From NCBI GenBank assembly GCA_964016885.1, contig OZ024753.1, forward strand, positions 2,666,001-2,730,000: 64,000 nt of DNA. The letters run 5' to 3'. How positions within the stretch are numbered: position 1 is the first letter of the stretch; each line of letters starts with the position of its first letter. A program made the translations under genes and the position numbers. The notes under the pieces are model-generated. The model was not told the origin of the DNA, made no database searches, and saw only the letters and a list, made by a program, of their open reading frames with translations. Of the stretch, positions 12,251-59,430 are shown piece after piece. This DNA comes from Eledone cirrhosa (lineage: Eukaryota).

Positions 12251-12251
<1 letters not shown>

Positions 12252-12421
12252 CGAAGGAGTTGTGGTAAGGAACGAGATGGACCAACCATAATGCACCAGA
12301 GTACTCAATACTTAGGGTAGTAGAGTGGGTAATGTAATAGGAGAAAGTATTTCTGGACTTTAGTCCAGAAATAGCCGTCGAAACAGCTTGAGCTCTGCCG
12401 TCGGCGTCATACTTTCTCCTA
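12251..12421 (-). mobile_element. Family B element in (TA)n with inverted segments and a half-hammerhead remnant
   Basis: Shares gagtactcaatact..gtagtagagt with 28984-29160, and gtactcaatac with 16648-16863. Carries the IR taggagaaagtat/atactttctccta, the hairpin tatttctggact/agtccagaaata and GAAAC...GTC, but no CUGANGA. Confidence 0.5.
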
Positions 12422-12540
12422 TATATATATATGTTACAAACTTAAGATGATCACTGGGTAATTACTTTGGCCAGTATGAATGAATCTTGGATAAGAATGC
12501 TTACAGAATTTAAACAAAAAATCCATACACAATAGTACAT

Positions 12541-15963: not shown

Positions 15964-16569
15964 CATATTATATATAACTGACTCTTTTCCTATATATATA
16001 ACTGACTCTTTTCCTATATATATATACACCCTACAAACATTGCTTGGTATGGCTTGATGAAGAAACTGAATATTACTTATTCTGTGTATAGAATATGCTA
16101 TGTGTTAATTTATTTATAAATACAAATAGAATAGAATGTTGTTTATCTTAAGTAGAAGACTAGACATATTCAAAAAGGAAGACAATGTTAAAGAGTTAAA
16201 AAATGGATACCCACTCTCAGTTGTTTTACATCTATTTCTATATTTTCTCAGTCTTCTTTCTATCTATCTGCCTTCTTCCCAGTATACCCCCTTTGTTCAC
16301 AGTTTTCTTACTTTATCACATTTCTTTCTTGTCATTATGTAAATATATTTTATATTTTATATTAAATGTTAATTTATTTAACTTTTAAAACTATTAACTA
16401 TTATATATACGCCCGCAATTAAATATAATTTAGTCGTATTGTGAAATATGTTATTGTAAAAGTCTGAATTTGCTATTAGTATATATGTATATATATGTAT
16501 ATATATATATATGTATATATATATAATATATATATATATATATAATATATATATATATATATAATATAT

Positions 16570-16647
<78 letters not shown>

Positions 16648-16863
16648 CGTTATTCCGGGTTGAATCGGAGGTAACCACAGTAAGTAAGGTACTCAATACA
16701 TAGCAGAGTATAACAGTTTTAATATAGATGAGATTCTACAGGACTAGAACTGTTTCATTCATTAGAAATCATCAGGAATCATCAGAAATCATCAGGAATC
16801 TCCTGATGATTTCTAATGAATGAAACAGTTCTAGTCCTGTAGAATCTCATCTATATTAAAACT
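16648..16863 (-). mobile_element. Penelope-like pLTR/retrozyme-like short element (family B) in a (TA)n array, with a 63-bp perfect inverted repeat
   Basis: (TA)n lies on both sides. Arms 16715-16777 and 16801-16863 are exact reverse complements. On the minus strand the hammerhead core is followed by ATTAAA and the gtattgagtac motif. Confidence 0.6.
16732..16780 (-). ncRNA. Minimal type-I hammerhead ribozyme motif
   Basis: Minus strand reads gattc CTGATGA t-ttc-taat-gaa-t GAAA CAG ttctagtc CTG TA gaatc. Stem I is gattc/gaatc. Stem II is ttc/gaa with a U.U at its base (atypical). Stem III is ACAG/CTGT, followed by a GUA triplet. Confidence 0.7.
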
Positions 16864-16983
16864 ATATATATATATATATATATACATGAAAAAACCTTGT
16901 AACAGCATTGAGTGCTTCTTAAACTGATAAACTGCCTGTAACTCAAGTTACACCCACATCCACCATATTATATATAAATATAT

Positions 16984-17016
<33 letters not shown>

Positions 17017-17383
17017 ATACATATACACATATATAAATATATACACATATATACATATACACATATATAAATATATACACATATATGTATGTGTACATAT
17101 ATATATATATATACATATATATATACATATATATATACATACTAGTAGTTGTTTTACAATGTCTACATAGCATTGATGATATAAATTTAGAAATAGAATG
17201 TAGAAAGGGACAAGAGACTAACAGCATTAACATAGAGGACAACAACACCATAAGAAATAAAAGGCAAAAAATCAACTGTCTGACACTCTATCGATTCCTT
17301 CAAACCACCACCATCAATCAGCTCAATGATTTGAAAATAATAAGCTGTGTCCTTCCTTAGAAATATGATAATAAAAGAGTTAA

Positions 17384-17560
17384 TAATGGTTTCTACTTTT
17401 GGCACAAGGCCAGCAATTACTCCAGTGCATTACTGGTACTTTATGTTATCTATCCTGTAAGGATGAAAGGCAAAGCTAACCTTGGTAGGAGTTGAACTCA
17501 GAACGTAAAGGGCCAAAACTATGTTGCAAAGCATGGTATCTGATGCTCTACCAATACTGC
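17384..17560 (-). mobile_element. SINE-A copy
   Basis: Matches the reverse complement of 49991-50180. Confidence 0.85.
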
Positions 17561-18049
17561 TCTTGAAAGAGTTAACAAGATACTTGCTGAAAAGAGAATC
17601 ATGAATATGAGGAGAATAGTTTGATGAACTTATGCTACGTTATCATTAACATATAGTTACTGAACTTCAAAATGAATGTCTAGGAGACAACTGGACAAGT
17701 AGAAGAAAGAGGATTATATTTATATGTAAGTAGAATACAATAACATTTGTTATCTGAATATGTTTCTGTCAATAATAGTATGGAATATTTGTAAAAGTTG
17801 GCAAACTCAGCTGTTATGAATATGAAATGTGAATGACAGAATCATTGAAAAGTGAATTGTATGTTAATAACCTGAGTTTGTTGGTAGCCATGGTGGACGA
17901 GATAAAAAGAACTACCTTCTCATATATAACATAATATACAGCTAAACAAATAATTACCATATATCAATAATTATACAATAAAGAATATATAACTGACTCA
18001 TTGTAAATATGCATAAAACCATATACATGCATAAAATCATATACATTCA

Positions 18050-18627
18050 TATGTACATGGAATTTTTGTATGCCATGTATCTGTGTGTGTGTATATATGT
18101 ACATATATACACACACACACATGTACATGGAAATTTAGTATGCCATGTATCTGTGTGTGTGTATATATGTACATATATACACACACACACATGTACATGG
18201 AAATTTAGTATGCCATGTATCTGTGTGTGTGTATATATGTACATATATACACACACATGTACATGGAAATTTAGTATGCCATGTATCTGTGTGTGTGTAT
18301 ATATGTACATATATACACACACACACATGTACATGGAATTTTAGTATGCCATGTATCTGTGTGTGTATATATGTATATATATACACACACACACATGTAC
18401 ATGGAATTTTAGTATGCCATGTATCTGTGTGTGTGTATATATGTACATATATACACACACACACATGTACATGGAATTTTAGTATGCCATGTATCTGTGT
18501 GTGTATATATGTATATATATACACACACACACATGTACATGGAATTTTAGTATGCCATGTATCTGTGTGTGTGTATATATGTACATATATACACACACAC
18601 ATGTACATGGCATACTAAATTTCCATG
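18050..18627. repeat. ~68-bp hairpin-containing minisatellite, about 8 copies, ending in an inverted unit core
   Basis: Unit catgtacatggaa(a/t)tttagtatgccatgtatc(tg)n tatatatgtacatatata(ca)n. The array ends catggcatactaaatttccatg. Confidence 0.95.
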
Positions 18628-18887
18628 TTGGAGTTTTTTCCTTACAAAATGATTTTGTCTTCTACAAAATGTCCTTTAATAAGCAAATACCAGCAGTTGA
18701 TCGGTCATTTCTTGTTTGTGCCATAGTCAATGTCACTTGTATCCTTGCTCCCCAAATTGCCATTGTCTTTCACAAAATTGGCAAGAATGCATCACACCTG
18801 AGGAAGTAGACCCATGAGGTGAAATAGCTGATGTAGTAAGTGTCAATGTCTATTCTCTTCCGCAATGCCTATGTCATTTTGTGGACA

Positions 18888-19455
18888 AGGTGCAGCTAAA
18901 ATATACCACAGAGACTGAGGTGCCCACAGGGTGCAGCTGAGATATATCGCAGAGACTGAGGTGTCCATAGGGTGCAGCTGAGATATACCACAGAGACTGA
19001 GGTGCCCATAGGGTGCAGCTGAGATACACCACAGAGACTGAGGTGCCCATAGGGTGCAGCTGAGATACACCACAGAGACTGAGGTGTCCATAGGGTGCAG
19101 CTGAGATATACCACAGTGACTGAGGTGCCCATAGGGTGCAGCTGAGATACACCACAGAGACTGAGGTGTCCATAGGGTGCAGCTGAGATACACCACAGAG
19201 ACTGAGGTGTCCATAGGGTGCAGCTGAGATACACCACAGAGACTGAGGTGTCCATAGGGTGCAGCTGAGATACACCACAGAGACTGAGGTGTTCATAGGG
19301 TGCAGCTGAGATACACCACAGAGACTGAGGTGTCCATAGGGTGCAGCTGAGATACACCACAGAGACTGAGGTGTCCATAGGGTGCAGCTGAGATATACCA
19401 CAGAGACTGAGGTGCCCATAGGGTGCAGCTGAGATATACCACAGAGACTGAGGTG
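18888..19455. repeat. 41-bp minisatellite, about 14 copies
   Basis: Unit gggtgcagctgagatacaccacagagactgaggtgtccata with strict 41-bp periodicity and no unique spacers. Confidence 0.97.
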
Positions 19456-19825
19456 TAGATTCTGATGCTCGCCACCCCTGTTTTCTTAATATTTAGTATT
19501 TAATTTGTTTTTTTTTATATTTTTTATTGCAAACATTATATCATCGTATTGATATTTGTCCACAGAAAATGTTACATTTTTGTTTGTTTGTTTTGTTTCT
19601 GTTTCCAAAGTGTATGGAGTAATAGTTATTAACTTACAATATTTAGACATAGGTAGATAATTCTAGCTAGTAGGTGTTTACAAAATCATAATATTTCTAG
19701 AGGCATTGTATAACATAATGATATATAAACAATATTAATTTTTGTTGAATAAGTTGTCACTCATCTTAAATCTATATTGTTTACAAATGTAAATTTCAGT
19801 TCCCTTTTACACTGAAATATCAATT

Positions 19826-20012
19826 AATTGTTTCTACGTTAGGCACAAGGCCAGCAATTACCCAGTGCATTACTGGTACTTTATTTTATCGACCCCGTAA
19901 GGATGAAAGGCAAAGTTAACCTTGGCAGGATTTGAACTCAGAATGGCAAGGGCCGTACTCTATACGTCAAAGCAAGGCCTCCGACCCTCTACCAATACTG
20001 CCAATCCACCGC
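19826..20012 (-). mobile_element. SINE-A copy
   Basis: Matches the SINE-A consensus. Confidence 0.85.
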
Positions 20013-20202
20013 ATTAATACAGATAAAATATAGATGCATGATGTCACTCAGCCTTTGTTACTTTCAAAACCAGCCATTCTTAAATAGGACTAAATTTCCT
20101 ATCAGAGACTCGATGGGGCAATTTGAAATTTCCAGTGGGTAAATTGATTTTAAGTTGAAAATTGCATTGTTTTTGCTATGTCAATTTTCCTTAATACTGA
20201 TT

Positions 20203-28789: not shown

Positions 28790-28791
<2 letters not shown>

Positions 28792-28965
28792 AATGTTAAG
28801 TATTTCCGCGGAAAAGGTAAAGGAAAGAAGAGTGCTCTATGTATAGTACAGAGCTATTTAATTATGAAATAAACAACACAATATAATTATTCCATTACCC
28901 AAAGTTTCACAAAGTTAGACGATTCTAACAGAAAGGTCTGATATCGCTCATCAGAAGGAATCTTT
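28790..28965 (-). mobile_element. Family A pLTR-like element in (TA)n
   Basis: TA-flanked and collinear with 29204-29441 (ggaaaag..aagagtgctct.tgta..cagagct..attattccatt.acc..gtttc). Carries a hammerhead. Confidence 0.6.
28889..28961 (-). ncRNA. Minimal type-I hammerhead ribozyme motif
   Basis: Minus strand reads attcctt CTGATGA gcga-[31 nt including a gttaga/tctaac hairpin]-ttgt GAAAC tttgg GTA atggaat. Stem I pairs 6/7, stem II is 4 bp with G.U pairs, stem III is 2 bp. Confidence 0.7.
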
Positions 28966-28983
28966 ATATATATATATATATAT

Positions 28984-29159
28984 GAATGAGTTAGGATCCC
29001 AATAGCTGAGCTCTTGCCATTTCCTAGAACTAGCTGTTGAAACAGCAAGAGATCAACTATCAGGGTCTTGACTCATTCATATAACCATACTCTACTACTC
29101 CAAGTATTGAGTACTCTGTTGAACAATGGACGAATCAGTTTCTTACTGAATCCATCTTG

Positions 29160-29160
<1 letters not shown>
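28984..29160 (+). mobile_element. Family B element in (TA)n with a ~40-bp imperfect inverted repeat
   Basis: tgaatgagttaggatcccaatagctgagctcttgc pairs with gcaagagatcaactatcagggtcttgactcattca. It is followed by actctactactccaagtattgagtactctg. Confidence 0.5.
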
Positions 29161-29203
<43 letters not shown>

Positions 29204-29208
<5 letters not shown>

Positions 29209-29437
29209 AATGAAGTAATTCCATCGGAAAAGTCCAGGAAAAAAGAGTGCTCTCTGTAGGTAACAGAGCTTAATAGTTATGTAATAAGCAACATAAGGCA
29301 ATTATTCCATTTACCAGTGGTTTCTTAAAAGCAAAAAATTTTGCTTTCAATCCTCAGAATGAAAAAAGAGACCAACATTTTTTTGCTTTTAAGAAACCAC
29401 TGGTAAATGGAATAATTGCCTTATGTTGTTTATTATA

Positions 29438-29441
<4 letters not shown>
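29204..29441 (-). mobile_element. Family A pLTR-like element in (TA)n with a ~65-bp inverted repeat
   Basis: Arms ~29273-29339 and ~29377-29444 are near-perfect reverse complements. Carries a hammerhead. Confidence 0.6.
29305..29364 (-). ncRNA. Minimal type-I hammerhead ribozyme motif
   Basis: Minus strand reads tttcatt CTGAGGA ttgaaagcaaa-attt-tttgcttttaa GAAA CC act GG TA aatggaa. Stem I is 7 bp and stem II about 11 bp. Stem III is near-palindromic (accactggt) and is followed by a GUA triplet. Confidence 0.8.
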
Positions 29442-29480
<39 letters not shown>

Positions 29481-30210
29481 CTAACTGTGTCTGTGTGAGT
29501 GTCTATATATATGTCTGTGTGCGTGTGACCCAATGTCTGTAAGTAGGTTTTCTGTTTGTTTATGTCTTGTAAATGAGTAGTTTGACAAATGGATGATGTG
29601 ATCAACTAAACCAGTGAATGTAGGCCATTCAGAATAGTCACAGTCTAATGACTGAAACCAGCAGAAAAATAAGAGAATCAATGAATATCTACTTTTGTTT
29701 ACATGGTTTAGTAACAGGCAATTCACATGTTGGTCTATCTTCACCACTTCAAACTCATAATCATACAAACATCACTCATTTCTCCCTTCTGTATCTTTTC
29801 TTTCCCACATTTCTTTACATGATTCACTTAAAATTCCAATAAATTATGATTGTTGTAGTAAATACCATGAAGCACAGTGGAAAAAAAATCAATGCAAATC
29901 ATTGATCGCCTTTCACCCACTCTTTACTGAGCACTACTATACTAAGATCTGATTTGATCCCTACTTCTTTGGGATTCTTCAACTCTGGGCCCTAATAGGT
30001 AAACACTATTTTTATTAGGATGAACCTATTTCATTGTCTATATGTATCATATGTCGATACTAGTATCATTGTCTCTCCTACAAAAATAACAACTCCAGAT
30101 AAAATACAGATTTCTTTTGGTCTTTGTCATGTTATCATCATCATCATAATTTAATGCCTATCTTCACTGCTAGGCCCATGGCCTAGTGGAAGGGTGATAG
30201 ACTTACAATA

Positions 30211-30405
30211 ATAATTGTTTCTACTTTTGGCACAAGGCCAGCAATTATACCAGTGTATTACTGGTACTTTATTTTATCGACCCCGTAAGGATGAAAGGCA
30301 AAGTTAACCTAGGCGGAATTTGAACTCAGACCGTAAAGGGCCGTAACTCTTTGCTGCAAAGCATGGCGTCCAACCCTCTACTGATACTGCCAATCCATCA
30401 CCCTT
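30211..30405 (-). mobile_element. SINE-A nested in a CORE-like SINE
   Basis: 19-bp TSD atagacttacaataataat (30197-30215 and 30406-30424). The host SINE spans ~30170-30590. Confidence 0.9.
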
Positions 30406-31530
30406 ATAGACTTACAATAATAATGTTGTGAGTTTGATGCCTGGAATGGGTTGTGTGTTGAGTTCACATTGCTCCGGTATACTCAGCTGAAAATGAGTAC
30501 CAGTAATAGCTGAGGGTTTTACACTGCAATGGACTTAGAACTGAGATAATCACTGGCCTGATGAGCCGCCGGCTTTGAGACAGACTTTAAACTTTTTCCC
30601 AGCTTACAAGTGTTGGATGTCTCTTCCCAGATCAAGTAGATACTTGAGTGGTGCCATCAACCTACACATAGGCCTACATATCCTCAAGAACAATAACAAC
30701 AAAAATGATTAAAGTACTTTTGTTAAAAAGAACAATAATTTCTAATATATATTTACAGCTAAATTATTAACATTTCAAACTAGAAATGTCTATCATACAT
30801 TCCCCAATAAGCATCAAAATAGCTCTAACAAAATTTACAGACTTCGTTATTTATATCATTTCATTGTTAAGTATTCAAAGATTGATGACCATTATGTAAA
30901 TAAATAATAATAAATAATAATTGTATGAAGCAGATATTTCATTTGTGATCCATTCCTAATTAATCTTTTACTAAGAAATATGGAAAACTGCTCCAGTCAT
31001 TTCTTAACTCATGGAAAGAAAGAATAACAATGAAAATAAACAATCACAGAAAGTACATACACATAAAGTGTTCAACTAAAGCTAATTTTATTATTGTTTA
31101 TTATAATCTTATAATATTTCTTTTATTATAATGGCTAATATTGCAACATTTCTTCCGTTTTCTCCCAAGTTTTTTTCTTTTCTTGCCTTACAAGAGTAGC
31201 TTGAATCAGCTGTGATGATAATCTTTTTGCTTTTACATTCCTAGAAATGTAATTAGGTTATATCTCTTTCAACAACTTTTGCCTTTATTCAACTACTTTC
31301 ATATTCACTTTCAAACACTTGTACACACACATACAAACACGTACACATATACACAAACACACATACAAACTGCATACAGACACACACATACAAGCACACA
31401 CGTAGACACAAGCATACAAACTGCATACACAAATATATGTACACACATGTTGACACAAACACACACACAAAAACGCATACACACACACACGTTGACACAA
31501 ACACACACATAAACACAAAATCGCACGCAC

Positions 31531-34978: not shown

Positions 34979-35756
34979 CATACACACACACATATATATA
35001 CATATATAATTCCTGATCAGGTTTTCATTTATTTATACAGAAGTCTTCACTAATCCATTAAGAACATAAAGAATAATGGAAATAGAATCTTTATTGTCCA
35101 ATATCACATAGTGAACTCCATAAAAGGAGAAACAATTGAAAAACTAAAGTTTTGAGTGTTTATTTTCCAGTCAGGCTTTCGTTTAGAGAAGAGCATATGA
35201 GTAGGAAATTTTATGTGATGAAAGGAAAGACTGTGAATGAATGTGCTGGATTATTCTTTTTTATAAGCATAGTGGTTAAATCTTCAGAATTTGAACTTTG
35301 AGAAAACTGATGTGTAACACCGACTAAAAGCAGTAAATTAGCTGAGTCATTAGAACACCAGATAGAATGCTTTCCAGTATTTGTTTTGGTTCTCTGCTCT
35401 CTGAGTTCAAATCCTGATGAAGTCAACATTGCCTTTCATCCATTCAAGGTTGATAAAAAGAATACCAGTTTAGTACTGCGATCGATTCTTCCTCTGTATC
35501 TCCTTCACAATGACATTCTTTCACTCACACTCTAGCCTTCTCTGGAAGAAATTTGCTATTGTCAGACCTTGAGAAGAGATGGGTTCCACCAGGTTTAAAA
35601 ATACCCTAGAAACATTGTATGTCAATATAGCATCCCTACGATGTTACGGGACCATACATACAAATATAACACGGACTAAATGATTCTAAAAATACAACTA
35701 CTTTAGGAAACAGAAGAATGTATCTTTATTTTTAATTTTATAATTTTTATTTTGTT

Positions 35757-36156
35757 TTATATATAATAATTGTTTCTACTTTTGGCACAAGGCCAGCAAT
35801 TATCCCAGTGTATTTCTGGTACTTTATTTTATCAACCCCGTAAGGATGAAAGGCAAAGTTAACCTCGGCAGGATTTGAACTCTGACCGCAAAGGTTGTAA
35901 CTCCATGCTGCAAAGCATGGCGTCCGACCTTCTACCGATACTGCCAATCCACTGCGTTTTATATATAATAATTGTTTCTGCTTTAGGCACAAGGCCAGCA
36001 ATTACCCACTGCATTACTGGTACTTTATTTTATCGACCCCGTAAGGATAAAAGGCAAAGTCAACCTCGGCGGGATTTTATATATAATAATTGTTTCTACT
36101 TTAGGCACAAGGCCAGCAATTACCCAGTGCATTACTGGTACTTTATATATAATAAT
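35757..36156 (-). mobile_element. Three stacked SINE-A copies (full, medium, short) separated by the same 15-mer
   Basis: tttatatataataat occurs 4 times, bracketing each copy. Confidence 0.9.
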
Positions 36157-39100
36157 GAATGAAAATGATTGTGTACATTGCTCAGGTGCAATATAATTCA
36201 TCAAATGTGCTTGTATAGTACATAGAATAATGTAGAAATGTCAGGAAAGTGAACAGTGTATGAGTCATGATATACACAGATATATTTCTTGTTTTTTTTT
36301 GTTATGCAGGTATTAATTGGAATTATGTTTTCAATATCCTGCATTTGTTTAGATCTCACTCTCAAATCACTGCATGCATATGAAGAAGTAAGGATAAAAA
36401 GCAAAGCTAATCTTGACGGGATTTGAAATCAGAATGTAAAGGGCTGTACCTTCATGCTGCAAAGCATTGTGTCTGATGCTCTACCGATTACTTTAATCCA
36501 CCACCCTCACCTTGAAATAATGAAAGGCAAAACTAACATCATCCAGATTTGAACTCTAAAAGAACAAAGAGCTAGAATAAATACCACTAATGACTTTGCC
36601 AATTCACTGCCTACACCTATCAATGTAATAACACAAATTACATGTTATCTTTCATTTTTTTTTCTGAGACTAGTGATACACGTATATATATATACACGAT
36701 ATCATAAAATCTATAACTAAAATACTATGACTATATATTAGGCTTATCACACTGTCATTTATATTTTTTGATGAGACAAGTTTCTAAGAGAGAATGGGGT
36801 AGAATAGAAGAGATACCAGTGGTGATATTAAATGCAGATATGGCTGTATAGCATCCAATGTAGTAAGAATTAGAACAAAGGTATGTATGAAAGTAGTAGA
36901 TTAATTATAAGTTCCACTTCTAATTAACTCTAACCAGTCAAATTCACACTATATGCAAATGTGTCACTTCAGCCAATGTTTTATTTGCACCATATGCAAA
37001 TTAGGATCTTCAATGTTTAATATATAAATAAGGATATTCAATGTTTAATATATAAAAAACATATGTTTTAGTCTATTCTCTTGTCCATACCAAGTGAGTA
37101 AATTTCACTGATAACAGATAGAAATCCAGGAAACAACTGTCTGGAATTCTCACCATTACTAAGGTAGCTGTGACATGGTCACATCTCTACAAAAATAATA
37201 AAACTTCATAGCATGATTGTCCTATCTTTATTATACATGAATATATCATATATGCTTTCATATACATCCCTATTAAAAATAATAGATGCTGAGTTGATAA
37301 TAAAATAATGGTAAGCAGCATGAATTAAGAAGCAGCCTAGTTGTTGTTGCTGTTTGTTAGCCCATAGGGAGCCTTCATCAAACATATGCATGTAATTCTG
37401 TTTGTAAATCACTATGGTGTAATTTGATGGAGAATTTGCTGCAATTCTACACAGGTTAACCCTTTAGCATTAACATTACTCTATATTTACTATTGTATTT
37501 TCATGGTAAAGGCTTAACCTCACATAATTTCGAAGCTATGAGATTTTGATATTTATTTTGAGAGCAATACTTTAATGTCAGTATGAGTGGCCAATTACAG
37601 CTGATTTATACAGAAAGAGGTAAGAGAATTTTGACCAGATACAGCCAGTTTAAATGCTAAAGGGTTAATGAAAATAGCCATCTAACACATTTGATCTAAT
37701 GAAGGAAAACAATAATATTTAATGCAGCTATTTAAATATCTCTTATGTTATAACAAAACAATTCTTAATGCATGTAAAAGTATGGGATAAGAAGATATCT
37801 TTAGAAGATTGTATGCCAATTTGATAATAACTTTGGCAGAGATTAATAATTTCAACTTAAAGTGAAATAGTAATATATGATTACTTTACAAAATGATTGA
37901 CTGGGAGCAGGACAGTTGGATAGATTCAATATTACTAACACTCATTCTTGTGCCAGTATAGAGATTATTAAGGTGATGATGATGATGATGGCACAGCAGT
38001 GATATTAGTGTCGAGAATGTTTAATCTTGGAAATGATAAATCAGTTTTATTGATGAAAGAGACAGGATAATTTATTTCTTGCCATCATTTCATTTACTGA
38101 AACATATATCTGTTAACATGCATCAACATTTCAGTTGAGGTGTGCAGGAATTTTATTTAAGAAATCAGCAGTGAAGAATAAGAAATGCCTGAAGCCAAGA
38201 TGAAATTAAGAAGCCAGCAATGTCAGTTGATCATTCATTACTTAATCTAGTATCAGTGGATTGGAAAATAAACCAAGATATTCTATTTGAAATATACTCA
38301 ATGCTGCAATTCTATAAGCAATTTTATTATTTTGTTAAATAATAAAGTATTTATAGCTATTTTCTTTTTGATATTGTTATTGGTTTTGTTATTTATTTGT
38401 TGAACCTGCAGCTCCTGTTTAATTACAGCATATTACAACAGATGATTGGTATTATACTTTCAAGTGATTGCCATTAAAGATTATGCTCTTAAGTATTATC
38501 TAACTTAACAGCTAATCTAGTAAACTGGTTTATAAAAGATGGATAATTCTGAAATACTTTTCATTTGATTTCAAGCTCCACTGAAATGATAATCAGGTAT
38601 TGCAATTATATCCTTGAGCATAATGTTTAGCATAACAAAGCCAACAGTGATTCTTGCTACGTTCTGAATATAAGTGAATCTTTATTGGAAATCCCAAAGT
38701 AAAACAATCCTACAACAATACCATAAAGTGAAACCCTTCAAGTAATATATAAGAATATGCAAAATGATTAGGAAATATCAACTTAATGCCCTTTCAAATA
38801 AAATTGAAATATTTCTATTCTAATATGCAATGGACAGCATATAATTGATATAATTGTTTTTACTTTTTGGCACAAGGCCAGCAATTACCCAGTGCATTAC
38901 TGGTACTTTATTTTATCGACCCCGTAAGGATGAAAGGCAAAGTTTAGCAGAAGAGTAATACAATCATGACAATCATCATCATCATTCTGATCAAGATGAT
39001 GATAGGAATAAGAAAAATCTGTCAACAATATTACAAACATGTGGACTTGAGCTTAAGTTAGGAATCATTAAAGAAGAAGAAGAAGAAGAAATAACAATGA

Positions 39101-42535: not shown

Positions 42536-44614
42536 CAATATTTGGACATTTCAAATGGATGGCTGAACAAAACTAGTAAACTTTTCCACCCAGCAGCTAT
42601 TTCCCTGGGGCAACCTTGATATTTTGGTGGTAAGATTAGAAAGCCTTCACTCAATACACAACCACAGTAAGAGGCCTAAAATAGATCAGTTGCTGCATGG
42701 AAATTGTGAAACAAAACACGGAACAAATGAATGAAGAAACAGTAGACAAAAATAAATAAATGTAATGTTAAAAGTAAATCAAAAAGTCTTTCCCAAACCT
42801 GGAGAATAATCAGGCCACTACATATCCTGGTATCATTGCTGTTAAGTGACTTAGAGGATGCTAATTCATTGCAGGGTCAATTCTCAGCTATTGCTGATAC
42901 TAATTCTCAGCTGAGTGTATTGGAGCAATGTGAAATGAAGTGTTTTGCTCAAGAATACAATATGCTATTTGGCCCCACAACCAAACCCTTGACATGATGA
43001 TTCTGAGTTCAACACCCTAAACACTAGATCATGTGGTTTCATATATATATATATAATACCCAGCCCACAATGTAAAGTGGTTGTGTAGGAGTCATGACAA
43101 AAACCACCCAGCATACACTGTAAATGTGGTTGGCATTAGAAAGGGCATCCAGCCACATAAATCTAGCCAGAAACAGTCCAATATGAGCATGACACAGTCA
43201 CCTGACCCAATTTGCTTCTAATGGAACAACCCATCTAACCCATGCTAGCATGGAAAATGGATGTCAAACGATGATGTTGATGAGTGTGTGTGTTTTTTTG
43301 TACAAAAGATATAGACAGCATTTGTAAAGGTAAAACCTAGAAATAATACATATTCCATCTAAAACAATTTAGTAGAAACTTAGTACATTTTACAAAAAAA
43401 CAACTTTGAATTTAAAGAGAACAAACCATTTAACATTGCAGCAGTATCTGTACTATAGAACCTTGCCAAAATATCTGATTACTTTTATTTCTTACATAGA
43501 AGAAAATCTAAAAGTCATATTGGTGTTACAACTAAGTTTTATAGATAATTAAAACTCTACATCTGATGTGTGTTATATATATTATGCTATCTACTTAATA
43601 CATACTTAATTATCAAGATAAAATGATGGAGGCGGTGAAGGTAGTTGAAACAAATTAAGAAAAACATCAAAGTGCCATATAAACAAACAAAACTTCTGAA
43701 TCAATGCAGAATTTCAATTCTGTGTTGAAGTATTTGGCAATAAATACAGTTTGGTTGAATCCATTAATTGGAATGGCAGGTAATATCTCAACGAGTGAAA
43801 CTTATGGAAATCCGATTAGAAGAGAAGTGAAAAAGGAACAGTTACAAAGAACATGGAAGGAAATTAAATAGAATAGAATAAAACACAAACATGAAGCAGC
43901 ACTGAAATATATTTATTTGAATATTTTGGACTTTAAGTTAGTCAGACTATTGTAAGACATTAAAGCCTCATTTTAGTTAGGTCACGTACAAAAATTATAT
44001 CTTTGAGCTGGCTTAAAAGAAGTAAAACAAGAGAAGGAAAAAAATACCAAAGTGATCAGACCATCACAGCAACACTCATTAAGAATGAAAACTAATATTA
44101 ATAAAAGTAAATAACACATGCAGACCCAAAATATAGTCTGAGCTCAGCTTTGGAGAATAATCTTATCAATATTGATTGACAAGACAAATTTTAATAGGAT
44201 TCTTCAGCAGAATAATTAAATCCTAGGCAGCTGAGTGATTCCGTTTAGATTTTATTCCCATCCAGCCAAATGTTTCTTTGTCATTTTTATTAGCAGAATT
44301 GTATTTCTTGAATAACTACAGAGCTTGTCAGTTATCGTTTGCTCATTCTAACCCTTATAGGTCCTTAATGTATGAACTATAATAGTTGCTATTAGTGTTC
44401 CTAAGTAGCACTTAAGACTAACTCAAAGATAGTCAAACTATACACCACTTAATAGTTCAGTATGTGTTAATGTGAGGCCTTAATGCCAAAAGACAACGTA
44501 AACATATATATGGAGATTTTATAGGTCGGGTTATATATACTTCATGGCAAATTTCATGGGAGCTGACACAATAAATTTTGGATGAATACTATTACTACTA
44601 ATAATAATAATAAT

Positions 44615-45020
44615 AATTGTTTCTACTTTTGGCACAAGGCCAGCAATAATCCCAGTATATTACTGGTACTTTATTTTATCAACCCCGTAAGGATGAAAGG
44701 CAAAGTTAACCTCGGCGGGAATTGAACTCAGATCGTAAAGGGATGTAACTATGCTGGAAAGCATAATCCAACCCTCTACCGATACTGCCAATTCACCAAT
44801 AATGGTTTCTTATATAGGCACAAGGCCAGCCATTTTGGGGGGAGGGGAAAGTCAATTAAATTGACCGCAGTGTGTTACTGGTGCTTTATTTTATCGACCC
44901 AGTAAGGATGAAAGGCAAAGTTTACCTCGGTGGGATTTGAACTCAGACCGTAAAGAGCCATAACTTTCTGCCGTGAAGCAGGGTGTCAAATGCTCTACTG
45001 ATACTGCCAATCCACTGCCC
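44615..45020 (-). mobile_element. SINE-A pair (short variant plus long variant)
   Basis: Two adjacent same-orientation copies. The second has an extra ttttggggggaggggaaagtcaattaaattgac segment. Confidence 0.85.
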
Positions 45021-45169
45021 TTTTAATAAATAGATAATAATAAATAGTAATAAAATTATAGAACAACTGAAAATTATATTTAGATAAGGACAAAACTGTA
45101 GAAAAGGTAACAAAAGTCACCTAAATATTAAACAAAAATGGAACTCTAAAATATACTAAAGTAAAATAA

Positions 45170-53447: not shown

Positions 53448-56400
53448 TTTATATCATTTCTGAGTGCAGTATCAGTCCTTTCTTTCCACAAACACTGTGC
53501 ATTCTGTTCTCATACCCACTTTCTCTCCTAGCTCCATTTCTCATTATAATTCCCCTTGATTTTTGAAATTTATATACGAAGCTAACTACCTATATTATAT
53601 TTTATAACATCACTATTTAAAAGCAATGATAATATCAATTTCTAAAACACAAAAAGATCAACTATAGAAAGTAAGAGAAGAAAAAAATAAGACACACATA
53701 TGCATGTATGCTTGACTGCTGTCAGTTGCAATGATGAGAGTTCCAGTTGATGAGAGTTCATACCATTACTTTTTAAGTGACTGAGCATTCCAAAGGCATA
53801 TATCCTTAATGTATTTCTCAGAGACATTCAGTTTGACACTGTGTGACATGTCATTTTTGCTAGCTGAGTGTACTGGAAAAACGTGAAATAAAGTATTTTG
53901 CTCAAGGATTGGCAGTATCAGTGTTGGACAACATGCTTTGCTGCATAGAGTTACTCCCCTTTACATAAAGTACCAGTAATGCACTGGAATTATTTTAATT
54001 GAACTCCCCTCCCACCAAATTATTGGCTTTGTGCTTTAATCAGAAACCATTATTGGGAATCAAACACATGACAGGGTCCACTATATCACAGGACCAAATG
54101 GAATGAAAAGTAGAACAAGGCCAATACCTCAAAGACTCACAACAATGTTATTTTGTTTATCTTTTACTTATGTTTTTATGGTATGTCATAGTTGAAATAT
54201 GATGTTTAGTTATACTTGAAACAAATTTAAGAAAAATGTAGCAAAGTAAAATAGCTTAGGTTCTGTTTTGACAAGAAGCCTCTAAATCTAATATGCAGGA
54301 ATATAATATGAGGTATGCCATCATTGTCATTTAATGTTCATCTTCCCAGATAGCAAGGTTTGGATAGGACATCACAGAGTCAATACTGAAGCTGAGATAC
54401 AGTTAGATGCTCCCAATAACTTTACAGTGTGTGCTGGGTGAATTTATTGTGTAGATAACCAACACTAGGAAAGTTGTCATATCTTTGACCCAAAATTGGG
54501 CAAGGCTGGTCTACTCTATCTCAATAGCTAAAACACAGTGGGCCATATAGCATCAGTGCGAAGTATTTAAGTTACTAGTGAAGTTAGGTTCTACAATAAA
54601 TCGTTCACGAAGAACTTCTTTTCTTTTTCATTCAATTAACAGAACCATCATCTGATAAAATTGCTTCTGTTAACAGATAATGTTTGAAGTGGAAAATTTA
54701 AAGTATTTTACAGAATTTAGAAGTGATGGAAAAATGAGATTAAACTCAGATTATGGTTAATTAGATCAATGGTAGAAATTCCTTGCCGTTTTTGTGGCAT
54801 CGTTTGTATGTAGTAGGTTTTGCAGTTTTCTTTTACTGGGCATATTTTAATGAACTTCAATGGAACATATATTTTTCTTTTTGTTTCTAACTGTCATATA
54901 TTATAAATATATATGTTTATAATTTTTAAAGAAAACATCTAAGTTTATGTATCACATGCAGAGAATAAGTTTAGTTTCACTGTTTCATCACCTTGTTTTA
55001 GATGTGTGCCATCTTTTGTCAATATAATACCAATACACCTGAAACTATGCTATGGTTCTATGAAACTAAACTTCCTATTTTACAGGATTCCTATTTAAGT
55101 TAAAATCTTTCAACAGAATTTTGTATAAGAAACAGATTTTAAGTTACAATCGTAGTAATGAAATAACTGATAATTTTAGTAATTCATCATTAATTGAAAT
55201 AAAGTGTATTTCATTAGAAATATGGTCATGAAAAGCATAAAGAGGAATAAAACTGCAGATGACACACTGACATTTGCTTGGCTCTATTCTGGTTAGGACT
55301 AAGATTGTGTTCACATTATTTGTATCATGACATTTCTCCTGGATCTTTAAATAAGGACTTCTTTTTTAGGCATAAGACCAGCAATTTGTTGGGTAGAGAA
55401 AGTCGACTGTATCAACTCCAGTACTTCACAGGTACTTTATTTTATCAACCTAGGAAAATGAGAAGCAGTCAAAATAGACTGTAGCAGGATTTGATTGAAC
55501 TCAGTACATAAAAAACTAGATCAAGCACTAGGAGGTAGTTCGTCTAATGCTTTGACTGTCTGCCAATCCTTGGATTTGTTTAACTATAAGGAGAGACTAC
55601 AGGAAGATGAGAAGCATTCAAAATTGACTGGAGCAGGATTTGAACTCAGTACATAAAAAGCCAGATCAAATACTAGGAGGTATTTTGTCTAAGGCTTAGA
55701 CTATTCTGCCAATCCAGCAGCCTTGGATTTGTTTAACTATAAGGAGAGACTACAGTTGCTCCTACATTTACTGTTGTACTTTTGCTTGATAATCATAGCA
55801 GAGAAGATATTTTATTTATTCTTTTTGCAGATTTGTTTGTATTTGTGTTAAAGTCTGAAACTTGCAGGGAGGAAAAAGATGAAAAAACAAACAAAACAAA
55901 ACAAACAAAAACGCAAAAATAATTAATCCTTTAGAAATACATTAATACCTGGTTATCTGATTATATGGTAAGAATGCAAAAAAAAATGTTGAGAAAGTTT
56001 TGATATTTGACATGTAAACCAATATGATCTCTATGGTCTGTTGGAGGGGAAGAGTAAATAATAAAACTGTTATTCTGCTATGTGATTCTTAAGATTTTCT
56101 GTACACATAAACTGAATAAAGTATTACATTATTTTTTTATCTTTTTATTGTTTTACATCCAATTTTTCATGCTAGGATGACTAACATAGATTTTCATTGG
56201 GGAATTGTTTTTGTTTATTTTTGTCCTTTTTTGCTGTTGTTTTTTTACAGGATGTGTGTCCTGCTGATAACCAATCAACTGTGAAGTAAAAGTAAAACTA
56301 TTTTGTCATTCAGATAAATTGAAACCAAGATGGCTATCTACCTCACTAAAATACACAAGACATGGCTGAAACGAGGATTGAATTAATAACTTTCCTGTCA

Positions 56401-58560: not shown

Positions 58561-58936
58561 CTGATCCTCAGACCAGTGTTGACACAACAAAGATCACATC
58601 AAATCTGGGGACGAACCAGCAAAAGCACAAATCATTATAAACAAAAAAAAAATTAACGGATATAAATAAAGAAATATATCCACATATACATGATGACTAT
58701 ATAAACACACATGTGCATAAAATGCCTACACACACTCTCACACATCGAAATCGTACAAATACATACATATACACATCCACACACACTATAATGGTATTTT
58801 CTTGTAATGTTCGAGATGGGTGTGTGTTGAATTCTAGGCCCCTGTTTGGTCATTCTATATGCTTGTTTGTGTTTTTGCATGTTTGTCCACAGATTTGAGG
58901 TGATCTTTGTTGTGTTAACACTGATCTCTGGATCAG
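58561..58936. repeat. ~75-bp diverged inverted repeat pair (58561-58637 and 58858-58936)
   Basis: ctgatcc..cagtgttgacacaacaaagatcacatcaaatctg versus cagatttgaggtgatctttgttgtgttaacactg..ggatcag. Confidence 0.8.
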
Positions 58937-59060: not shown

Positions 59061-59280
59061 ATATATATATGGTGGCTGCCGACTCGTTTTCGAGTACGGC
59101 CACTACCTTATATCCATGTAGGAGAACCCCTACCAATGCGCTGAACGAGTGTGACTTTTTAGTCCAGCCAGCGACTTGAAAACTCTGGTACAAACACTAC
59201 ACTTGTGACAATTATTGACACATAGTGCTGGGGCCATGGTACCATGTGACGACAAGTGCAGAGAGATCAGAGATCTCCAG
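59061..59280 (-). mobile_element. 5'-truncated RTE/BovB-like LINE end with a C-terminal C2H2 finger, in (TA)n
   Basis: CSVCTRVFKSLAGLKSHTRSAHW*, then a short UTR with an actcg-aaaa-cgagt hairpin, then (TA)n. Confidence 0.65.
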
Positions 59281-59430
59281 TATATATATATATATACACC
59301 AACAAACATATATACATACAAATGTATACATACATCTACATATATGTGTGCATATGTATATATATATCTACATATATGTGTGCATATGTATATATATATC
59401 TACATATATGTGTGCATATGTATATATATG

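Follow-up and report, generated by a model that had tools for sequence, protein, structure and literature searches.

A hammerhead-bearing repeat in a (TA)n tract of Eledone cirrhosa with the layout of a PLE-type insertion

Introduction

According to PMC8557442, insertions of Penelope-like elements (PLEs) comprise an inverted 5′-truncated copy and a one-sided tail of 30-40 bp, and they show a bias towards (TA)n targets. Palindromes at head-to-head junctions, for which self-priming was proposed, are described in PMC3846280, and PMC11167929 reports two internal starts of reverse transcription, nicking of both strands and the use of uncleaved RNA as the template. Hammerhead ribozymes occur in pseudo-LTRs (pLTRs), where dimers and opposite-strand pairs have been reported (PMC4209133). 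The axolotl hammerhead HHR_Amex2, whose helix II has a basal U.U, reached 22% cleavage in one hour (PMC7229834), and retrozymes have been tied to PLEs (bioRxiv 10.64898/2026.07.22.740005).

Here we analyzed an element at positions 16648-16863 of a 64,000-nt stretch of the Eledone cirrhosa genome (assembly GCA_964016885.1, contig OZ024753.1, positions 2,666,001 to 2,730,000 of the forward strand), referred to below as the window. The element shares with endonuclease-positive (EN+) PLE insertions (PMC8557442, PMC3846280) the head-to-head inverted 5′-truncated copy, the one-sided tail, the junction palindrome, partial tandems, a (TA)n target (as in Neptune, Naiad and Hydra) and a hammerhead in the repeat, but it has no ORF and its arms have shrunk to the hammerhead itself. 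As in the hammerheads of metazoan PLEs (PMC4209133, PMC6765202), the motif is of type I, has a palindromic loop III and a predicted dimer, and occurs in many solo copies and in opposite-strand pairs.

Metazoan non-LTR retrozymes (PMC7229834, bioRxiv 10.64898/2026.07.22.740005) are likewise non-coding, low-GC repeats with a type I hammerhead, for which mobilization by PLEs has been proposed. They form tandems of ~300-nt units, whereas the present element is a sub-monomer, and the tandem hammerhead units of about 200-500 nt that mark retrozymes are absent at this locus. Poseidon_Ac (PAc, PMC11167929) resembles it in having two element ends separated by the tail, an AT-rich target and copies that run through an uncleaved hammerhead. 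PAc, however, starts in an AC-rich stem-loop within an ORF, whereas the inner end described here, a putative start, sits 4 nt ahead of another hairpin. Neither this octopus hammerhead family nor joining at the helices of a ribozyme was found described in the main texts of the literature available without subscription.

Structure of the insertion

The element is a 216-base insert set between two (TA)n tracts. The left tract (16480-16647), which has a periodic extra A, stops at 16647, and (TA)n restarts at 16863 (right tract, 16863-16884). Within 16522-16647 the extra A recurs at roughly regular spacing, possibly owing to slippage at the target. The insert contains an inverted repeat with arms at 16715-16777 and 16801-16863, which lie 23 nt apart and are complementary at all positions (63/63, 100%), just as the initial annotation had described a perfect 63-bp repeat inside (TA)n. 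None of the 200 shuffled sequences equalled its fold (z ~ -20).

The inverted repeat adjoins (TA)n on the right only. The left side is occupied by a one-sided tail of 67 nt (16648-16714, minus strand), which we take to be the 3′ end of the element RNA; the outer end of the family lies near 16650. The tail carries a hairpin with a 5-bp stem and an 11-nt loop (16690-16710, minus strand), placed 4 nt behind a second, inner fixed end of the family (16712-16719, minus strand). This inner end is marked by TA-type loose ends, by tandem joints and by the mirror point of the outer end of the inverted arm, and is a putative second start of reverse transcription.

The left arm (16715-16777) holds the sense copy on the minus strand. 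The right arm (16801-16863, plus strand) is an inverted 5′-truncated copy without a tail, which retains the core, helices II and III and the GUA but has no 5′ strand of helix I. The spacer between them, read in the initial annotation as short duplications of the CUGAUGA region, is composed of ATC and an exact 17-nt duplication (16764-16780 = 16784-16800) that is confined to one arm. The second copy of this duplication gives rise, at the junction (16781-16801), to a 14-bp hairpin whose loop has 3 nt. No second copy of the element was found by blastn against the window, where only a 28-nt piece was detected at 56058-56083. Elsewhere in the window there is a 71-nt inverted repeat (58561-58631 / 58866-58936) of 86% identity, with 235 nt between its arms, which is not bounded by TA.

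The hammerhead motif and its computed folding

The minus strand from 16780 to 16732 reads as a type I hammerhead, with the core CUGANGA and GAAA, an NUH site and helices I-III, and with the cut predicted between 16737 and 16736. Helix I has 5 bp (GAUUC/GAAUC) and is followed by CUGAUGA. Helix II, of 3 bp plus a U.U at its base, precedes GAAA; the corresponding helix of PLE hammerheads has 6-8 bp (PMC4209133, PMC6765202), but the U.U is shared with axolotl HHR_Amex2 (PMC7229834). Helix III (16738-16753, minus strand) has 4 bp, compared with 0-2 bp in PLE hammerheads (PMC4209133, PMC6765202), and is closed by an 8-nt loop that holds the palindrome CUAG; a GUA forms the cleavage site. The minus-strand stems, the GUA site and the U.U had thus been read correctly from the sequence beforehand, as had the lack of a cis partner for stem I in the plus-strand copy, which has the core but can form in cis no more than two adjacent pairs of helix I.

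Only this element and that of another family, family A (29357-29312), match a type I descriptor in the window, for which the chance rate was a mean of 0.04 loci per 64 kb (100 order-3 Markov sequences). An Rfam search of 16648-16800 gave five matches at E up to 10, with no hammerhead model among them, and no hammerhead appeared among the 150 of 187 matches listed for the whole window. Many of the spurious microRNA matches in Rfam are caused by a minisatellite at 18021-18628 (palindromic unit of ~70 nt); another minisatellite, with a 41-nt unit, lies at 18889-19456. An exact-motif search of metagenome, viral and prokaryote genome contigs found the motif in 0 stretches.

The active fold of the isolated motif is weak by computation (-3.7 vs -5.6 kcal/mol for the MFE structure, probability 0.008). 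Helix III with its palindromic loop, a predicted dimer interface, gave a computed -12.8 kcal/mol as a duplex vs -1.4 kcal/mol as a hairpin, and the active dimer -17.4 kcal/mol vs -11.2 kcal/mol for two MFE monomers. In the source RNA, the dimer is predicted to be the form in which the ribozyme cuts best. With the antisense arm present, the computed pairing probability of helices I-III was 0; the 63-bp hairpin would, by this model, sequester and silence the ribozyme of this copy.

The repeat family in independent reads

Sequencing runs were searched by 13 sampled words. Half or more of the words were present in 4 of 20 runs, which come from one organism and one study; the other 16, which had fewer than 5 words or belonged to other organisms or metagenomes with a small share of them, were left out. 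There was no RNA run among the matches listed, and reads were placed from 4 of the 23 listed runs. The data on the family come from two raw-read runs (X21 and X22) of the same species and a different study, together with X1 contigs. For a read to be placed on the 216 nt it had to be at least 80% alike, which favours apparent conservation.

The repeat family is abundant, since 7115 reads of one run and 7409 of the other match the 216 nt. Reads at least 99% alike (347/7115 and 635/7409) point to a young subfamily. The recent origin that the initial annotation drew from the perfect repeat was overstated, for 63 identical positions bound the divergence between the arms only to <4.6% (95%); the part of the claim that survives is the one suggested by these near-identical reads.

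TA-type loose ends were recorded before 16650 in 489 (X21) and 494 (X22) reads. Before 16715, the exact mirror of the right end of the locus, they were found in 508 reads, in X22 only, among the 24 of 524 loose-end rows listed. Loose ends behind 16780 (762 and 806 reads) indicate that many copies continue upstream of the ribozyme. The first letter upstream of 16780 in these copies would lengthen helix I to 6 bp, so that the family helix I probably has this length. The upstream part of the family is visible solely as 30-letter loose ends, and the short tandem joints vary in length.

Joints within the family were considered for 15 of 113, those listed. Thirteen of the 15 are head-to-head, with breakpoints unlike those of the locus, and three turn exactly at helix II: 16758->16819, 16760->16818 and 16761->16819 (5, 6 and 4 X1 contigs, respectively). 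A tandem joint, 16780->16719, was supported in X21 by 54 reads (13 starts) and in X22 by 18 reads (6 starts); among the X1 contigs, re-entry also takes place at 16712 and at 16717. Because tandem copies re-enter at 16712-16719, the inner end is used also where TA is absent. Among the contigs and reads listed, none spans the junction of the locus itself.

Variation among the copies is uneven. The variant rows listed, 40 of 81, show strong variation at all four positions of loop II, and none of these rows falls in 16734-16760 or 16765-16785, the segments that contain both U.U bases. As neither base is among these rows, the U.U is probably the state of the family, with the reservation that the reads placed were at least 80% alike. 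A change at 16733 (A>C) was present in 915/2380 and 816/2472 reads. Together with loose ends behind 16778 it fits, unphased, a compensatory swap of A-U to C-G, which a sister subfamily would carry in its helix I. A core change, 16805 G>A, which mirrors G5, was seen in 86/368 and 122/436 reads; core changes of this kind occur in some decayed copies.

Other TA-bounded elements and features of the window

A hairpin like that at 16690-16710, placed 47-56 nt from the outer end, is found in the tails of four other elements of the window that are bounded by TA. The long-armed elements can be compared directly: in addition to the element described above (arms 63/63, tail 67 nt), these are the family A element (29203-29441, minus strand; arms 64/66, tail 70 nt), lying in (TA)n, and a decayed element at 28983-29162 (plus strand; arms 36/45, tail 79 nt). 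In all three the inverted arm mirrors to 3-4 nt before the tail hairpin. The hairpin pattern itself is permissive: it matches the window 12 times, 5 times within the TA-bounded elements under consideration, and it is therefore the position of the hairpin, not the pattern, that carries the argument.

In a MAFFT alignment across families the tails align and the ribozyme parts do not. The initial annotation proposed that at least two lineages share one architecture of ribozyme, polyA-like signal and conserved tail. The data bear out a second hammerhead family besides family A, laid out in (TA)n in the same way, but the polyA-like signal is not shared; the tail hairpin is shared instead. ATTAAA occurs in the present element only and no common hexamer was found, so a shared polyA-like signal was rejected.

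The hammerhead of the family A element has a long helix II and a minimal helix III, and the inner end of its inverted arm lies at helix II. A TA-bounded relative of family A (28790-28964, minus strand) has the core and a very long helix II region; with the decayed element and the family A element it forms a cluster of three insertions in one TA tract. The TA-bounded element at 12251-12423 (minus strand) has the same tail hairpin as 28983-29162, and no hammerhead core was found in it. Its short inverted arm was recognized by eye only, was unrecovered in two script checks and was not counted.

Some other repeats were distinguished in the window. A SINE-like family of ~200 nt occupies at least 13 places (17381-17560, 19815-20015, 30199-30424, 35744-36146, 44590-45050 and others), in some of them as partial tandems, often beside (TAA)n. 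The minus strand of 59070-59399 contains what remains of a reading frame, with a C2H2 zinc finger at its end (Pfam E 1.5e-4, below the cut-off). A short hairpin comes next and abuts (TA)n; the whole is possibly the 3′ end of another retroelement.

Origin of the insertion

The element has a two-armed layout and two fixed ends that abut (TA)n, and the family shows variable head-to-head and tandem joints. We consider it likely that the locus is one short insertion of a high-copy hammerhead repeat, written into (TA)n by a PLE reverse transcriptase with a GIY-YIG endonuclease. The published features of PLE insertions found here are the inverted 5′-truncated copy, the one-sided tail, two recurrent 3′ ends, partial tandems and the microsatellite target; since the layout matches them, the element likely works like a PLE insertion. 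Its tail of 67 nt exceeds the published 30-40, which counts against this explanation, as do the core changes in some reads and the weak computed fold of the monomer. The element would be a pLTR stump or a retrozyme fragment, assigned to PLEs by layout and not by a linked RT or GIY-YIG protein. A Pfam search of 56 of the 154 stop-to-stop frames of the window gave no RT. A LEM-3-like GIY-YIG match at 37209-37463 (E 0.002, below the cut-off), far away from the element, was rejected as spurious.

In the proposed course of events, the RT/endonuclease of the PLE would nick both strands of (TA)n, and both cut target ends would prime cDNA synthesis on uncleaved element RNA, one cDNA starting at the end of the tail (16648) and the other at the inner site (16715). 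Both cDNAs would halt where the hammerhead has its 5′ edge, and their 3′ ends would then be joined to each other, one of the two cDNAs having slipped by 17 nt. On this view the 63-bp hairpin is likely to be a by-product of insertion.

The main rival retains the PLE origin but derives the second arm from a single cDNA that folds back, by snap-back at the hammerhead helices or at an AGGA-ATC-TCCT tip. The endonuclease would then resolve the hairpin at the AT-rich 16715, and the 17-nt duplication would arise later, by repair at the tip. The 14-bp hairpin with its 3-nt loop at the junction, the identity of the arms and the three of 15 listed joints that turn exactly at helix II all speak for such a course, and PMC3846280 interprets palindromes of this sort as self-priming. 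However, loop II is variable and alignments would break there in any case, and fold-back during library preparation can mimic helix II joints. The 17-nt duplication is present on one arm only, which argues against simple fold-back from the final cDNA end, as this would copy the duplication, and the tandem joints re-enter the same inner site uninverted, for which an RNA start site is the better fit. Dual priming is favoured over single-strand fold-back because the tandem joints reuse the inner site and the duplication is one-sided. It has to be said against dual priming that the same junction can result from fold-back or from subsequent repair at the tip of the hairpin. Taken together, we regard fold-back as unlikely, though it deserves to be kept in mind.

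Much less probable is an artefact of assembly or library fold-back as the source of the inverted arm. No listed record spans the stretch, and the best runs (0.92, 0.85 and 0.77 of the 13 words) represent one sample, which is possibly the source of the assembly. Nevertheless, the arm ends exactly at the inner end of the family and adjoins (TA)n, as do 508 reads of another study, and two other elements of the window have mismatched arms (64/66 and 36/45), unlike an artefact.

It is also highly improbable that the hairpin is a selected device, in which the antisense arm switches the ribozyme off or supplies dsRNA to small-RNA or editing pathways. Although computed pairing of helices I-III falls to 0 in the presence of the arm, and a perfect 63-bp duplex would form on either strand, the breakpoints vary between copies, no second copy of the junction 16781-16801 was seen among the listed joints, and inverted arms are a general footprint of PLEs. 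Equally hard to credit is a MITE or fold-back DNA transposon with a chance hammerhead-like sequence: the insert is short, non-coding and TA-targeted and has a perfect inverted repeat, but its repeats are not terminal (given the 67-nt one-sided tail), fixed termini are not found at both ends, the inner breakpoints vary, tandem joints occur, most matching reads continue into unlike sequence, and the hammerhead motif is far above chance.

Implications for the PLE insertion mechanism

Within the preferred reading, a PLE-type insertion primed from both cut ends, a further proposal can be offered tentatively, as a possibility that we consider less likely than not. It may be at the hammerhead helices that both cDNAs stall and then anneal to each other head-to-head, with the PLE enzyme priming at two fixed sites on sense RNA from both (TA)n cut ends and with the inner site 3-4 nt ahead of a conserved hairpin that unrelated families share. 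If true, the ribozyme fold would be the joining point of the insertion, whether it cleaves or not, and head-to-head palindromes would be explained without the antisense template invoked in PMC3846280.

The single locus matters little, being one stump among many copies. The element is a real, ordinary product of a known element class and has modest value for the PLE mechanism. It offers a compact readout of how PLEs build inverted, one-tailed insertions. Since its 216 nt contain both putative start sites, together with the tail hairpin and a junction that lies in the ribozyme, it would be a convenient in vitro template once the driver protein is found.
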